Positions 29,520 through 53,985 of a stretch of DNA of 64,000 bases are shown here, piece after piece. Below the pieces are notes generated by a model. That model was not told the origin of the DNA and did not search any database. It worked only from the letters and a program-made list of their open reading frames with translations. Position numbers and translations under genes: made by a program. Position 1 is the first letter of the stretch. Every line of letters starts with the position of its first letter. Source of the DNA: Escherichia coli (GTDB lineage Bacteria > Pseudomonadota > Gammaproteobacteria > Enterobacterales > Enterobacteriaceae); assembly GCF_003019035.1 (NCBI RefSeq), contig NZ_CP027447.1; one strand, given 5' to 3'.

Positions 29520-30335
29520 CTACGAATTGATATGTTCCTTGCTGTAACGTCGCTTCCACGCAGCTGGCGTTAAGCCGGTGTGTTTGCGAAAAATCTGCCG
29601 GAAATAGCCGACGTCATTAAACCCGCACAACGCCGCCACTTCCGTGAGCGATCGCGCTTCGCTAATTAACAGCTTTTCGGCTTCGCGCACCCGCTGGCGG
29701 TGGATTGCTTCTGTTAACGTCAGATGAAACACCCGCCGATAGACGCGCCCAAGATAATCGGCATTGCAGTACAGCTCGCGGGCTAAAAGCGCCGTGGAAA
29801 GCGGGCGGTGATATTGCGTGCGAATCAGTTTCTGCGCTTTCCAGGCAAGGGTGGTGCCTGCACCATCGGCCTGTTCATCAAGACGCGCGTCACGGGTGAG
29901 CTGCTGCAAAATCAGCAGCACAATAAACTCCAGCGCCGGAGTGCGTTGATGCTTTTCCTGTTCGCTTAAGAACTGGCGAAACAAGGCCACCAGCACCTGC
30001 GGATCGGCAACCTTAGTTTGTTGCGGCACGCTAAGATGAGTGAGCCAGCGCGGGTCGCTATCCGGCGCTTTAACCTCAAAATGCAGCCAGTAAAATTTGA
30101 GATCGGCGGGAAAATCCTCTACCCCAACATGCTGTCGGTTCGGCCAGAGTAATAAACTCTCTCCCGCATCGACCAGAAATATCCGCTCTTCTTCCTGAAT
30201 CGCTAATCGACCTTTTTCGACAAAGATAATTTCCCATGACTCCAGCCGCCTTGCCGGATGCCTCCCAACGCCACGGGAAATAAATAATCCACCATTTTGC
30301 ACTTTAATCGGTAACGTCATGGATAATTCGAGCAT
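29520..30335 (-). CDS. AraC-family transcriptional regulator (cupin sensor + C-terminal AraC HTH)
   Basis: 271-aa ORF with C-terminal AraC-type HTH (...LTEVAALCGFNDVGYFRQIFRKHTGLTPAAWKRR); divergent from the transporter gene. Confidence 0.8.
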   Translation of the reverse strand: MLELSMTLPIKVQNGGLFISRGVGRHPARRLESWEIIFVEKGRLAIQEEERIFLVDAGESLLLWPNRQHVGVEDFPADLKFYWLHFEVKAPDSDPRWLTHLSVPQQTKVADPQVLVALFRQFLSEQEKHQRTPALEFIVLLILQQLTRDARLDEQADGAGTTLAWKAQKLIRTQYHRPLSTALLARELYCNADYLGRVYRRVFHLTLTEAIHRQRVREAEKLLISEARSLTEVAALCGFNDVGYFRQIFRKHTGLTPAAWKRRYSKEHINS

Positions 30336-30383
30336 TGATATGTAATTTCCCGCTTATTCATTAATGATTAAACACATTACCTT

Positions 30384-30398
30384 TTGATTATTAATCAA
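30384..30398. promoter_or_regulatory. Perfect palindrome TTGATTATTAATCAA in the AraC / transporter divergent intergenic region (candidate operator)
   Basis: 15-bp perfect inverted repeat flanked by further ATTAAT direct repeats. Confidence 0.35.
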
Positions 30399-30560
30399 AA
30401 ACATTAATTTCACCTGATCCATTTCACACTTTTAAATTCAGGTCGGAATCGTCACCTTTTTTTACTCTTTTCTCGCCTTGTTGATATTCCCGTTCACGGC
30501 AGAATTAATCAGGTCATTGCAATAAAACTAAAAATTGCTCCCTATTCACGAGGAATATCT

Positions 30561-31961
30561 ATGACCTCTACACCGATTACTGCCGCTGATATCGCTAAAG
30601 GTAAAATTGACGATGCGTTATCTGTACGGGAAAAAATAAGCTACGGCCTGGGTGACGCAGGCGGCACCGTAATAACTTGCCTGATCATGAACTTTCTCAC
30701 CTTTTTCTACACCGACGTTTTTGGCTTAACTCCGGCGCTGGTCGGCACGCTGTTTATTGCACTGCGCGTGTTTGATGCCATCTCCGACCCGGTGATGGGC
30801 GTCATTGCCGACCGGACGCAAAGTCGCTGGGGGCGCTTTCGTCCGTGGCAGTTGTGGATTGCCATTCCCATCGGCATTATCGGCATCCTGACGTTCACCG
30901 TGCCAGATGCCAGCATGGGAGTAAAAATCGCCTGGGCGTTCGGTACTTACCTGCTCCTTTCAGTCGGTTATACCGCCATCAACGTACCGTACTGCGCGCT
31001 GATCAACACCATGACCACCCGCCACAATGAAGTGATCTCCTGCCAGTCCTGGCGATTCGTTCTCTGCGGCGTAGCGGGATTTCTGGTTTCGGTTGGCCTG
31101 CCGTGGATGGTGGATCTCTTCGGTCAGGGTAATGCCGCGCGCGGCTATCAACTGGGCGTCGGCGTGCTGTGCGCCATCGCTGTGGTGATGTTCCTGTGCT
31201 GTTTCTTCTGGGTTCGTGAACGGGTGCCACTCTCCACAATGGGGAAATTTACCCTGCGCGAACATCTTGCCGGGCTGCGGAACAACGACCAACTGCTGCT
31301 GATGCTGGTCATGTCTTTCCTGCTGATTAACGTCTTTAATATTCGCGGCGGTGGGTATATGTACTTCATTACCTACGTCTTACAAGGCAGTACGGGCTAC
31401 ACGTCGCTGTTCTTCACTATGGTCACCTTCGCCTCCATTATCGGCTCGGTGATTGTCAGCCCGTTAACGCGGCGTTTCGATACCGTCAAAATTTACTACT
31501 ACACCAACCTGCTCCTCGCCGCGCTGGCGGTGTTGATGTGGTTCCTGCCTTCTGGCCCGGCTTATCAAACGCTGTGGCTGGCGGTGATCCTCGGTAATGG
31601 CGTGATTCTTGGCTTCACATTGCCATTGCACTTCTCATTGATGGCCTTTGCCGATGACTACGGCGAGTGGAAAACCCGCGTACGTTCTTCCGGCATGAAC
31701 TTCGCCTTCAATCTGTTTTTCATCAAACTGGCCTGGGCCTCCAGCGCCGGGATCATCAGCCTGCTGTTTATTTTTGTCGCCTACCAGCCAGGCGTGGAAA
31801 ACCAGACCGCCAGTTCGCTTGGCGGGATCACAGCAATGGAAACATTGCTGCCTGCGCTGTTCCACCTGCTGCTGGCGATGGCGATCCGCTTTTGCAAACT
31901 CAATAACCCTATGATGTCACGCATTGCTAGCGACCTGCGTCAGCGTCATGTACAGCCTTAA
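30561..31961 (+). CDS. GPH-family (glycoside-pentoside-hexuronide) sugar:cation symporter, MFS superfamily
   Basis: 466-aa polytopic ORF with the GPH signature [25 protein letters not shown]. Confidence 0.8.
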
Positions 31962-31971
31962 GGAGCACAAG

Positions 31972-33951
31972 ATGAACATTTCGGAAGTCGATCTGCATAA
32001 ACTGACGGTCAGCGATCCGTTCCTCGGTCAGTACCAACAACTGGTCCGCGACGTGGTGATTCCTTATCAGTGGGATGCCTTGAACGATCGTATCCCAGAA
32101 GCGGAACCCAGCCATGCGATTGAAAACTTTCGCATTGCCGCCGGACTTCAGGAGGGTGAATTTTACGGGATGGTGTTTCAGGACAGCGACGTCGCCAAAT
32201 GGCTGGAAGCGGTAGCCTGGTCGCTGTGCCAGAAGCCGGACGCCGAACTGGAAAAAACCGCCGACGAGGTGATTGAACTGATCGCTTCCGCCCAGTGCGA
32301 AGATGGCTATCTCAATACTTACTTTACGGTAAAAGCGCCCGAAGAACGCTGGAGCAATCTGGCGGAGTGCCATGAACTTTACTGCGCCGGTCATCTGATT
32401 GAAGCCGGAGTCGCCTTCTTCCAGGCCACGGGCAAGCGGCGCTTGCTGGAAGTGGTTTGCCGTCTGACCGATCATATCGACAGCGTATTTGGTCCAGGTG
32501 AAAGTAAGTTACACGGTTATCCTGGTCACCCGGAAATTGAACTGGCACTAATGCGCCTGTATGAAGTGACCGAAGAGCCGCGCTACCTGGCGCTGACGAA
32601 CTATTTTGTCGAACAGCGTGGTGCGCAACCGCACTATTACGACCAGGAATATGAAAAGCGCGGGCAGACCTCGCACTGGCACACCTACGGCCCGGCGTGG
32701 ATGGTGAAAGACAAAGCCTACAGCCAGGCACATTTGCCCATCGCACAGCAGCAAACCGCCATTGGTCACGCGGTACGTTTTGTCTACCTGATGACCGGCG
32801 TCGCGCATCTCGCCCGTTTAAGTCACGATGAAAGCAAGCGTCAGGATTGCTTGCGGCTGTGGAACAATATGGCCCAGCGTCAGTTATATATTACCGGCGG
32901 CATTGGCTCACAAAGCAGCGGCGAAGCGTTCAGCAGCGATTACGATCTGCCGAATGACACGGTTTACGCCGAAAGTTGTGCTTCCATCGGCCTGATGATG
33001 TTCGCCCGACGAATGCTGGAAATGGAAGGCGACAGTCAATATGCCGATGTGATGGAGCGCGCGCTGTACAACACTGTGCTCGGCGGCATGGCACTGGATG
33101 GCAAACATTTCTTCTATGTGAATCCGCTGGAAGTACATCCAAAATCGCTGAAATTCAACCATATCTACGATCACGTTAAGCCGATCCGCCAGCGTTGGTT
33201 TGGCTGCGCTTGTTGTCCGCCAAATATCGCCCGCGTACTGACCTCGATTGGTCATTATCTCTACACGCCGCGTGAAGATGCGTTGTATATCAACATATAC
33301 GCAGGAAACAGCATGGAAGTGCCGGTAGAAAATGGCACGTTGCGCCTGCGGGTTAGCGGGAACTATCCGTGGCAGGAACAGGTGACAATTGCGGTTGAAT
33401 CGCCCCAGCCGGTGCGTCATACGCTGGCTTTACGTCTGCCGGACTGGTGCACACAGCCGCAGATCATATTGAATGGGGAAGAGGTCGAGCAGGATATTCG
33501 TAAAGGGTATTTGCACATTACCCGCGAATGGCAGGAGGGCGACACGCTGAATCTAACTTTGCCAATGCCAGTACGTCGCGTTTACGGTAACCCGCTGGTG
33601 CGTCACGTCGCCGGAAAAGTGGCGATTCAGCGCGGCCCGCTGGTGTATTGCCTGGAACAGGCCGACAACGGCGAGTCACTGCATAACCTGTGGCTGCCCG
33701 CCGATGCGCCATTTACGACATTTGAAGGCAAGGGATTGTTCCGCCATAAGATCTTAATCCAGGCACCGGGTTACCGGTATGAACAGAGCAATCCAGAGCA
33801 GCAACCGCTGTGGCATTACGACAGTGCGCCAGCCAAACGCCAGCCGCAAACTCTGACGTTTATTCCGTGGTTTAGCTGGGCTAACCAGGGTGAAGGCGAA
33901 ATGCGGATCTGGGTGAATGAGGAAAAGCATTGCCATCCGGAGGTTGGATAA
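31972..33951 (+). CDS. Glycoside hydrolase family 127 (DUF1680; beta-L-arabinofuranosidase HypBA1-like); start at the ATG preceded by AGGAG
   Basis: 659-aa protein; E-S-C and C-A-C-C-P-P-N motifs about 77 residues apart match the GH127 Glu/Cys3 zinc-cysteine catalytic centre. Confidence 0.75.
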   Translation: MNISEVDLHKLTVSDPFLGQYQQLVRDVVIPYQWDALNDRIPEAEPSHAIENFRIAAGLQEGEFYGMVFQDSDVAKWLEAVAWSLCQKPDAELEKTADEVIELIASAQCEDGYLNTYFTVKAPEERWSNLAECHELYCAGHLIEAGVAFFQATGKRRLLEVVCRLTDHIDSVFGPGESKLHGYPGHPEIELALMRLYEVTEEPRYLALTNYFVEQRGAQPHYYDQEYEKRGQTSHWHTYGPAWMVKDKAYSQAHLPIAQQQTAIGHAVRFVYLMTGVAHLARLSHDESKRQDCLRLWNNMAQRQLYITGGIGSQSSGEAFSSDYDLPNDTVYAESCASIGLMMFARRMLEMEGDSQYADVMERALYNTVLGGMALDGKHFFYVNPLEVHPKSLKFNHIYDHVKPIRQRWFGCACCPPNIARVLTSIGHYLYTPREDALYINIYAGNSMEVPVENGTLRLRVSGNYPWQEQVTIAVESPQPVRHTLALRLPDWCTQPQIILNGEEVEQDIRKGYLHITREWQEGDTLNLTLPMPVRRVYGNPLVRHVAGKVAIQRGPLVYCLEQADNGESLHNLWLPADAPFTTFEGKGLFRHKILIQAPGYRYEQSNPEQQPLWHYDSAPAKRQPQTLTFIPWFSWANQGEGEMRIWVNEEKHCHPEVG

Positions 33952-34062: not shown

Positions 34063-34473
34063 TTAAACGCCCGGCAATACACGCCGGGCAGCTTCTGCCA
34101 GAAACGCACTTCTGTTGGCGTAGTCTGGGTTATTGCGCACGTAGGTATCAATCTTGTTCAGTAACCTTTTCGGCATCGTAATATTGATACGTTCAGCCCG
34201 ACCTTCGAACTGATTCATATTGATATCCACCAGCAACCATTGCCCGCCAATAAAGTCCTGCGCACGCTGGACCAGATGTGTTTCCACAGAGCCTGGAAGC
34301 GGCAACTCTTCATCCATCTCGCATAAGGTTTCGAAGTGCGCGACCAGTGCACTTCGCGCATCCTGGAAAGCGTTGTCCAGCGTATCACCAGCAAAATAAC
34401 AGCCTGGAACATCAGGGAAAAAACCGCTGGCGCTGCCGTCAGGATCACTGTGGATATAGGCGGGATAAAACAT
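34063..34473 (-). CDS. hicB: HicB-family antitoxin (N-terminal RNase H-like fold, C-terminal ribbon-helix-helix)
   Basis: 136-aa ORF 16 bp downstream of the hicA-like gene; C-terminal RHH-like segment ITMPKRLLNKIDTYV... Confidence 0.75.
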   Translation of the reverse strand: MFYPAYIHSDPDGSASGFFPDVPGCYFAGDTLDNAFQDARSALVAHFETLCEMDEELPLPGSVETHLVQRAQDFIGGQWLLVDINMNQFEGRAERINITMPKRLLNKIDTYVRNNPDYANRSAFLAEAARRVLPGV

Positions 34474-34489
34474 ATTGCCTCCTGAAATT

Positions 34490-34675
34490 TTAAAATGTTA
34501 AACCAGCCTGACGCCCAATTTGCGCCAGCGTACCGGGCTTAATATCTTTTTTAGGGTGCGGAACCGTCACCAGACCCGGATGAACAGGGTGGCGGAACTG
34601 ATGATGACTGCCACGGGTTCGAATATGTTCCCAGCCATGCTGCTTCAGGATGGCGATCACGTCTGCACTTTTCAC
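34490..34675 (-). CDS. hicA: HicA-family mRNA interferase toxin (YcfA-like); apparent GTG start
   Basis: 61-aa ORF with the GSHH motif (IRTRGSHHQFRHP); toxin-first gene order. Confidence 0.75.
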   Translation of the reverse strand: MKSADVIAILKQHGWEHIRTRGSHHQFRHPVHPGLVTVPHPKKDIKPGTLAQIGRQAGLTF

Positions 34676-53769: not shown

Positions 53770-53985
53770 CTGCAGATCACATCAGGTGAACGCCGTAAGA
53801 AAATATCTTGTGATTCAGATCACAAAGATTCAACAAACTAACAAAACAAAAATGTGACATTACTCACATTTAAATGCCATTTTTAGCGAAAATCGCCGCC
53901 TTGTTGCTTTTTTACACAAGAGTTTTGTGATGCACATCACGTCAATTACCTCTCTACCCCCTATATTTATGTGATTCATATCACA
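53770..53985 (+). promoter_or_regulatory. mtlA promoter/operator region with a cluster of CRP-type palindromes
   Basis: TGTGATTCAGATCACA (53808-53823), TGTGACATTACTCACA (53852-53867), TGTGATGCACATCAC (53925-53939), TGTGATTCATATCACA (53969-53984). Confidence 0.65.

Follow-up and report, generated by a model that had tools for sequence, protein, structure and literature searches.

The 225-bp region (positions 30336-30560, 32% GC) that separates a divergently transcribed AraC/XylS-family regulator gene from a glycoside transporter operon in Escherichia coli appears, on balance, to be a control region of the araC-araBAD type, serving an accessory operon that is uncharacterised. The mechanistic steps of this assignment are those which we infer from conservation, spacing and sequence matches in the window, the 64,000-nucleotide stretch of DNA that was analysed, and in orthologous regions. 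The strongest conservation was located in an indel-free module consisting of a CRP-like site, a 44-bp block and the sequence TTGTTG-16 bp-CAGAAT, all of which lie outside a palindrome that had attracted attention first. The analysis yields a base-resolved map with two promoters, one CRP site and two regulator half-sites, all of them predicted, and the eye-catching palindrome is not the conserved unit.

Genes of the locus and conservation of the intergenic region

The window is E. coli chromosome; a search with 2.7 kb around the locus gave 100% identity to strain SCU-301. The regulator gene (29520-30335, minus strand) encodes a protein of 271 amino acids with matches to the Pfam families HTH_18, HTH_AraC and AraC_binding. 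It thus combines an N-terminal cupin-type AraC_binding domain (ligand/dimerisation) with a C-terminal double helix-turn-helix. The top NCBIfam match was AraC, with a score far below the family cut-off, and the identity to K-12 AraC was 23% in a full-length alignment; no characterised relative closer than AraC was found. In the identical strain SCU-301 the gene is annotated as an AraC family regulator. The operon on the plus strand starts with a gene for a GPH-family (MFS_2) glycoside:cation symporter (30561-31961), which matched TIGR00792 (gph) above the cut-off, followed by a gene for a glycoside hydrolase of family GH127, the beta-L-arabinofuranosidase family (31972-33951), recognised by all three GH127 Pfam domains and by the SCU-301 annotation. 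The Pfam and NCBIfam matches and the opposite strands confirmed that the flanking genes are an AraC-family regulator and a transporter in divergent orientation, as stated in the original prediction. Judging from the GH127 gene, the inducer is possibly a beta-L-arabinofuranoside or L-arabinose.

Both ends of the intergenic region contain translation signals. The ribosome-binding site GAGGA of the transporter gene (30550-30554, plus strand) occupies conserved columns 6 nt 5' of the ATG at 30561. On the minus strand, the leader element AAGCGGGAAATTACATA (30339-30355) is situated immediately upstream of the ATG of the regulator gene; columns 30337-30355 were conserved to about 0.6-0.9, and the element is probably the ribosome-binding region of this gene.

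The locus is positioned after the yiaK-sgbE operon. E. coli K-12 MG1655 has a clean deletion of the part corresponding to window positions 29624-33644, leaving ysaC and ysaD as remnants. Of 5426 complete E. coli genomes, about 2320 (about 43%) carried the complete locus, among them O157:H7 and BL21(DE3) derivatives; the operon also occurs in many Enterobacterales. Literature searches on the regulator and the operon returned no relevant paper, and the absence of the operon from K-12 has kept it out of the standard regulatory databases. The regulator and the GPH symporter/GH127 operon are an uncharacterised accessory locus.

Starting from an alignment of 18 orthologous regulators, 80 loci from other Enterobacterales were fetched, with one genome per species. 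The regulator was divergent from the GPH-GH127 genes in nearly all of the 80, and the identities to the window proteins ranged from 58 to 93% for the regulator and from 80 to 97% for the symporter. From these loci 77 intergenic regions representing about 25 genera were extracted, which gave, with the window included, 73 sequences non-redundant at 95%. Polymorphism within E. coli was uninformative as a test of constraint, as 2060 of 2321 genomes were at least 99% identical over the locus stretch.

Conservation across the 73 sequences was sharply uneven along the intergenic region. The conserved elements were TTGATTATTAA, GATC-N4-TCACA-TTT, the block at 30440-30483 and GCAGAATWAAT. The spacing from GATC to GTCGGAAT was 26 bp in 77/77 loci, that from GTCGGAAT to CTTGTTG was 35 bp in 78/78, and that from CTTGTTG to GCAGAAT was 22 bp in 77/77, despite the variable sequence of the 16-bp spacer. 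The distance from GCAGAAT to the ATG ranged from 57 to 220 bp. A promoter with bound activators, followed by a free 5' untranslated region, would be expected to show such a pattern: a fixed geometry up to a -10-like hexamer and then a stretch of variable length. Among the orthologous regulators the DNA-binding domain was more conserved (80%) than the N-terminal domain (66%), which fits invariant target sites.

Predicted regulator sites, CRP-like site and promoters

The block AGGTCGGAATCGTCACCTTTTTTTACTCTTTTCTCGCCTTGTTG (30440-30483, plus strand) was nearly invariant over 44 bp. Most columns were identical in 65-73 of the 73 sequences and not a single indel occurred in about 25 genera; the consensus across the orthologues was AGGTCGGAATCGTCAYCTTTTTaTACTyTTyynTysCCTTGTTG. 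It was present in one copy per genome, only at the regulator/GPH-GH127 locus. No second copy of the block or of the half-sites was detected in the 225-bp region, and a regulon with a second genomic copy was rejected, since the block occurred at one place per genome in the E. coli genomes. This block is probably the best candidate for the activation sites of the regulator. Two regulator monomers would bind directly repeated half-sites of about 17 bp, at about 30442-58 and 30463-79. The predicted promoter-distal half-site (30442-30458, plus strand; the araI1 equivalent) was placed by geometry only; it starts at +18 from TCACA and includes GTCGGAAT, which was conserved in 72-73 of 73 sequences. 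The predicted promoter-proximal half-site (30463-30479, plus strand; the araI2 equivalent) starts at +39 from TCACA, abuts or overlaps the -35 and would in this way touch the -35 of the operon. The 21-bp-phased motifs CAYCTT and YSCCTT were among the top self-matches of the profile, but their resemblance was weak (about 9/21) and pyrimidine-rich and could be compositional.

Cross-regulation of the locus by AraC itself was also considered. The leader element at 30339-55 deviates by 2 mismatches from the AraC half-site format TAGC-N7-TCCATA and is the only good match in the 225-bp region. Such matches were not enriched in the window (370 found versus 404 expected), and cross-regulation was rejected.

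The operon promoter is predicted to overlap the end of the block. The -35-like hexamer TTGTTG (30478-30483, plus strand) was conserved in 67-73 of 73 sequences and was located 16 bp before CAGAAT in 77/77 loci. In the -10-like hexamer CAGAAT (30500-30505, plus strand; CA[G/A]AAT among the orthologues), A30501 was found in 71/73 and T30505 in 72/73 sequences, while the third position was variable; the hexamer forms part of GCA[G/A]AAT[T/A]AAT, conserved at 30499-30509. In a rough scan with a sigma-70 matrix built on approximate textbook frequencies, the CAGAAT promoter ranked first among the conserved plus-strand predictions. TTGTTG-16-CAGAAT agrees with 7 of 12 consensus positions, which is below the threshold of the consensus scanner, and this scanner detected no strong promoter on either strand of the region, a result consistent with activator dependence. 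The operon would accordingly have a weak, activator-dependent promoter consisting of TTGTTG, a 16-bp spacer and CAGAAT, with a transcription start near 30512-14. Two other candidates were discarded. With TATACT (30461-66) as the -10, the equivalent of position -11 (30462) would be a T in E. coli and varies in 12/73 sequences while its neighbours are invariant, and the CRP-like site would be at about -52. The combination TTCACC-18-TAAATT was disfavoured as operon promoter since its hexamers were poorly conserved.

Upstream of the block a CRP-like 22-bp site (30410-30431) was recognised, with the core CCTGA-N6-TCACA at 30413-30428 and the centre at 30420.5. Compared with the core TGTGA-N6-TCACA the spacing is correct and there are 2 mismatches; matches of this quality are common by chance (37 found versus 26 expected in 64 kb). 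Over the 22-bp consensus, 14 positions matched here and 11-16 in the orthologues, compared with 12 in the established CRP site of araBAD. The columns GATC (30416-19), TCACA (30424-28) and TTT (30430-32) were identical in 69-73 of 73 sequences, GATC and TCACA even in 72-73. The two halves differed: the right half was invariant in 73/73, whereas in the left half only G7 and A8 (and T9 and C10) were conserved. The left half matched at 2/5 positions in 59/77 loci, and T4-G5-T6 was missing in most species. The CRP consensus is matched at every conserved position (G7 A8 T9 C10, T15-A19, T21 T22), and conservation ends where the 22-mer does. The invariant GATC is also a Dam site. It is predicted that cAMP-CRP binds the site centred at 30420.5 and aids activation of the operon as at araBAD.

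The second promoter is predicted on the minus strand. The asymmetric core TTGATTATTAA (30384-30394), which reads TTAATAATCAA on the minus strand and comprises the left half and the centre of the palindrome, was present in 65/77 loci. TTAATAATCAA contains AATAAT (30392 to 30387), which matches TATAAT at 5/6 positions. The most conserved columns of the core were T30391, the equivalent of -11A (73/73), and A30387, the equivalent of -7T (72/73). The upstream edge of AATAAT and the centre of the CRP-like site are separated by 28.5 bp, so that CRP would be near -40.5/-41.5, a class II position. Both TTGATTATTAA and GATC were found in 65 loci, and in 64 of these they were at a fixed distance of 30-31 bp. 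No conserved -35 for the regulator promoter was detected at the expected place. The regulator gene probably has a CRP-dependent promoter whose -10, AATAAT, is supplied by the conserved half of the palindrome. A single CRP site would then serve both promoters; the leftward transcript of the regulator gene is predicted to start near 30380, with this site about 40-41 bp upstream.

In addition to its predicted role as a -10, TTGATTATTAA may act in autoregulation, as an operator comparable to araO1 or to site R of melR, as its conservation runs 3 bp beyond the -10 hexamer, which the -10 alone does not explain. That it is mainly such an autoregulatory half-site, rather than or besides a -10, is a possible but doubtful reading. 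The conserved stretch of 11 bp is longer than a -10 hexamer and corresponds to one helical turn with two major grooves, it is placed at the predicted regulator promoter as araO1 and site R are, and it keeps a constant distance from the rest of the module. Nevertheless, TTGATTATTAA did not convincingly resemble the half-sites proposed in the block (the best inverted match scored 4.36, compared with 6.2 for the top pair), and it was missing in 12 loci that retain the invariant block and a similar DNA-binding domain. In these 12 divergent loci without the 11-mer, the best -10-like hexamers were 46.5-48.5 bp from the centre of the CRP-like site. That the regulator -10 is displaced in them by exactly two turns of the helix was rejected, because the change from 28.5 bp to these distances is not clean, and they do not give a clean class I position in the sequences compared.

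For the CRP-like site, too, another assignment was weighed. GATC-N4-TCACA (30416-28) could be an upstream site of the AraC-family regulator instead of a CRP site, in which case the regulator would have three or four sites, as in the melAB region; this is unlikely. The top self-match of the profile did pair TCACATTTTTATCAT (30424) with TCATCTTTTTATACT (30452), GATCnnnnTC likewise resembles GGTCGGAATC, and GATC..TCACAYTTTT resembles GGTCGGAATCGTCAYCTTTTT 25-28 bp downstream. Moreover, GATC is invariant whereas the CRP-critical T4-G5-T6 is not. The offset of 25-28 bp, however, is not the 21 bp of the half-sites, and the resemblance requires a 3-bp gap. A CRP site would account for all conserved positions and for the end of conservation at the 22-mer edge, and the CRP site of ara lies at exactly this distance from its -10.

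The palindrome, the ATTAAT copies and less probable readings

The palindrome reported at 30384-30398 is exactly there, as TTGATTATTAATCAA, with 7-bp arms about a central T. It can be extended to TTTTGATTA-T-TAATCAAAA (30382-30400), with perfect 9-bp arms around T30391. In 5000 dinucleotide-preserving shuffles of the 225-bp region, arms of at least 7 bp occurred in 5.3% and arms of at least 9 bp in 0.5%. The several direct repeats of ATTAAT that had been reported along with it are four copies (30360, 30390, 30403, 30504), for which the label 'direct' is meaningless, since ATTAAT is its own reverse complement. The shuffled region contained 0.35 copies of this word on average, and none of the 5000 shuffles reached four. 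Any non-trivial hexamer at four copies, which allows for the free choice of the word, was obtained in 4.4% of the shuffles. The palindrome and the ATTAAT repeats are thus modestly beyond chance for a region with 32% GC.

In the orthologous regions the two arms of the palindrome behaved differently. The left arm was retained in 65/77 loci, but arms of at least 6 bp were kept in only 11/77, and conservation of both arms, as for a symmetric operator, was not observed. In the right arm T30395 was found in 36/73 and C30396 in 16/73 sequences. The full palindrome was kept in E. whittamii and C. amalonaticus and recurred in some Enterobacter, Yokenella and Kosakonia. Across the aligned loci, the symmetry is lineage-specific.

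Three of the four ATTAAT copies were not conserved among the orthologues. The first (30360-30365) was present in 0/77 loci and is already different in E. whittamii. The second, starting at 30390, was kept in 28/77, and the third (30403-30408) in 1/77, with columns 30402-30412 conserved to only about 0.3-0.5. The fourth (30504-30509), which overlaps the conserved GCAGAATWAAT of the -10 region, was exact in 17/77 loci; its position 30506 was T in 37, A in 27 and G in 9 of the 73 sequences. The two predicted -10 regions overlap the copies at 30390 and 30504, and the right arm of the palindrome and the copies at 30360 and 30403 are, by this comparison, lineage-specific AT-rich sequence.

In the original proposal the palindrome and the ATTAAT copies were candidate sites for the adjacent AraC-family regulator, and conservation in orthologous regions was named as a check. 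The part that withstood this check is the asymmetric 11-mer formed by the left half and the centre of the palindrome; the symmetry and the ATTAAT copies did not. The original interpretation is thus supported in part: the region is a divergent one between an AraC-type regulator and a transporter, the palindrome does mark a probably functional element, and its conserved half may still serve as an autoregulatory half-site. That the palindrome and the ATTAAT copies as such bind the regulator is very unlikely. In favour of this reading, both features exceed chance, the left half is conserved, and 11/17 positions are shared in E. coli between TACCTTTTGATTATTAA (30378-94) and CATCTTTTTATACTTTT of the block, which have the same orientation and are 75 bp apart. 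This has to be set against the retention of the symmetry in 11/77 loci and of the ATTAAT copies in 0, 28, 1 and 17 of 77, and against the far more conserved block at 30440-83, in the position equivalent to ara, where the likeliest regulator sites are found about 50 bases from the palindrome. AraC-family monomers bind asymmetric sites (PMC2377442), and a palindrome is therefore not expected for the adjacent regulator. A 23-nt direct repeat (30357-79 and 30384-406) is present in E. coli as well, but its first copy was unconserved among the orthologues. A local duplication of 27 bp as the origin of this repeat was rejected, both for this reason and because E. coli has no insertion: the distance from the regulator start to the motif was 48-50 bp in 65 of 66 motif-bearing loci.

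The palindrome could belong to a different protein. Highly improbable is a composite arrangement in which the indel-free module of about 95 bp would hold the operators of an unstudied sensor of plant beta-L-arabinofuranosides, wired to CRP like araBAD, and the palindrome of the E. coli/Citrobacter lineage would be a separate, lineage-specific operator over the regulator promoter for a second dimeric regulator, for example of the CRP/FNR family with a 5-bp spacer. Hardly credible, too, is the palindrome taken by itself as the operator of another dimeric factor, such as one of the CRP/FNR family, in the Escherichia/Citrobacter lineage. The FNR consensus is TTGAT-N4-ATCAA. The palindrome shares the arms TTGAT and ATCAA, perfect arms of 9 bp are rare by chance, and the full palindrome is maintained or recurs in the species named above. 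However, the sequence TTGAT-TATTA-ATCAA has a spacer of N5 and not N4, one base too long for FNR, and the right arm (ATCAA) was unconserved in 66/77 loci, so that an FNR site was rejected; an AT-only palindrome is also the least surprising kind in a region with 32% GC. For the consensus sequences of IHF, Fur and ArgR, compared by eye, no acceptable match was seen.

Least probable of all is that the invariant block functions as RNA (a 5' UTR, a leader or a small RNA) instead of as protein-binding DNA: near-invariance across 44 bp is unusually strong for transcription factor sites and the promoter-like TTCACC-18-TAAATT of E. coli (-10 at 30433), which had the best plus-strand score, would transcribe the block, but the hexamers of this promoter are those found to be poorly conserved, Rfam gave 0 matches at E<=1 for the block, its fold energy was no better than that of shuffled sequences (z = -0.13), no open reading frame was seen in it on reading the sequence, and the zero-indel spacing continues through the variable 16-bp spacer to the -10-like element, which fits DNA geometry and not RNA.

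Comparison with known control regions

The half-sites of AraC-family proteins are asymmetric, about 17-18 bp long, and are recognised in a fixed orientation by two helix-turn-helix motifs (PMC2377442, PMC11983282). At araBAD the AraC half-sites are direct repeats 4 bp apart which overlap the -35, CRP binds upstream, and araO1 is located in the regulator promoter (PMC11983282). The K-12 araC-araBAD region was read, and distances were measured from the TCACA half of its CRP site. The distal half-site starts at +18 in both cases (araI1 in K-12, GTCGGAAT here) and the proximal half-site at +39 (araI2 in K-12, TACT here). The -35 is at +52 in K-12 (CTGACG) and at +54 here (TTGTTG), and the -10 is at +76 in both (TACTGT in K-12, CAGAAT here). 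Further likenesses are a divergent AraC-type regulator with a cupin domain and a double helix-turn-helix, a perfect TCACA half of a CRP-type site that faces the operon, and a -35-like hexamer at the end of the predicted proximal site. The CRP-type site lies directly upstream of the predicted half-sites, on the same helical face as in ara; the 76 bp from TCACA to the -10 in both regions are a geometric test.

The differences were equally clear. Ungapped identity to the araBAD region over the compared stretch was 27/101, which is background. The retention of the araBAD geometry with unrelated recognition sequences fits a distant AraC homologue with a specificity of its own, as far as the aligned sequences indicate. 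The intergenic region is 225 bp long here and 339 bp in K-12, and no araO2-like distal site was identified, either in the 225-bp region or, for copies of the block, in the E. coli genomes; the leader element at 30339-55, although it has a format like that of an AraC half-site, was not significant. Unlike Pc, the regulator promoter here appears to use the CRP site at about -40/-41, and in place of arabinose catabolic enzymes the target genes encode a symporter and a GH127 glycosidase. An ara-type control region is of a well-known kind and overturns no current understanding. If the assignment is true, the locus would be a natural example of the araBAD geometry being kept at single-base precision with every recognition sequence changed. 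It would be useful for studying the evolution of AraC-family promoters and might provide an orthogonal inducible system.

The melR-melAB system resembles the locus in its gene content, with an AraC-family regulator divergent from an operon for a glycosidase and a GPH-family symporter (PMC2377442). The melR promoter is wholly CRP-dependent, with CRP bound over the -35, and autoregulation takes place at site R, over the start point (PMC2377442); site R overlaps the transcription start of the regulator gene, which is the position of TTGATTATTAA here. MelR itself, however, matched the regulator only through the helix-turn-helix region, with an E value of 7e-10 and far below the family cut-off. At melAB, MelR has four or five sites of 18 bp and CRP binds between these, whereas here the ara layout with two half-sites fits. 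The rhaSR-rhaBAD system also has an AraC-family activator with two half-sites that overlap the -35, and a co-activator site for CRP upstream (PMC11983282). The RhaS half-sites are inverted and 16 bp apart, whereas those predicted here have a direct 21-bp phasing as for AraC.

Distribution of the locus and its surroundings

Roughly 43% of the complete E. coli genomes carry the intact locus, among them O157:H7 and derivatives of BL21(DE3). K-12 MG1655 carries a clean deletion of about 4.0 kb corresponding to window positions 29624-33644 (5314-5610 in L082, the retrieved MG1655 region), by which most of the regulator gene, the entire intergenic region, the symporter gene and most of the GH127 gene were lost. 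What remains of the locus in this strain are the pseudogenes ysaC and ysaD. Immediately downstream of the GH127 gene, the window contains a hicB/hicA type II toxin-antitoxin pair (34063-34675), and at this position K-12 has yiaT-yiaW instead. Farther along the window, four CRP-consensus sites, each with no more than one mismatch to TGTGA-N6-TCACA, were found within 180 bp (53809-53985) just upstream of mtlA. Several CRP sites have been described for the mannitol promoter.

Conserved and divergent elements of the control region

The CRP-like site (30410-30431) contains the Dam methylation site GATC (30416-30419), which was invariant in 72 to 73 of the 73 non-redundant orthologous regions. The CRP-critical bases directly upstream of it were not conserved across these regions. 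Dam-dependent control or an additional protein contact is possible at this invariant GATC. A second conserved element, AAGCGGGAAATTACATA (30339-30355, minus strand), is located directly upstream of the start codon of the regulator gene. Its format is that of an AraC half-site, with two mismatches to TAGC-N7-TCCATA, and the distance from its start to the predicted distal half-site (30442-30458) is 103 bp. It is probably simply the ribosome-binding region.

In nine divergent loci from Buttiauxella, Cedecea, Atlantibacter and one "C. freundii" (L045, L061, L066, L067, L069-L072 and L079), TTGATTATT was replaced by another conserved motif, AGTGTAGA, at a fixed distance of 47 bp from the GATC. The regulator promoter of these nine loci seems to be built differently.

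Leader and operon integrity in orthologous loci

In many orthologous regions the part of the predicted 5' UTR between the predicted -10 element and the ribosome-binding site contains a GC-rich hairpin, for example CCCGC-N5-6-GCGGG (L043, L044, L051-L059 and others, from Klebsiella, Raoultella, the Citrobacter freundii complex, Pantoea and Kosakonia). The sequence of this hairpin varied by genus, and it was absent from E. coli. At the same position, about 140 bp of REP-like sequence are inserted in the locus of Buttiauxella izardii (L066). In Buttiauxella massiliensis (L072) the match to the symporter ended at residue 136, running into the GH127 gene, and the match to GH127 began only at residue 32, which suggests that the operon was inactivated by an internal deletion.

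Words common to the control region and K-12 araC-araBAD

Four separate words of 9 to 11 bases, CCCGCTTATT (window position 30349), TTGATTATT (30384), TCACACTTT (30424) and TCACGGCAGAA (30494), occurred in the same orientation in the intergenic region and in the K-12 araC-araBAD region (L083). At least three such words were obtained in 0.6% of mononucleotide shuffles, and no common words in opposite orientation were found between the two regions. Of these words, TCACGGCAGAA is out of order relative to araC-araBAD and largely specific to E. coli. TCACACTTT is the half-site of the CRP-like site in the window and of the CRP site in K-12 araC-araBAD.
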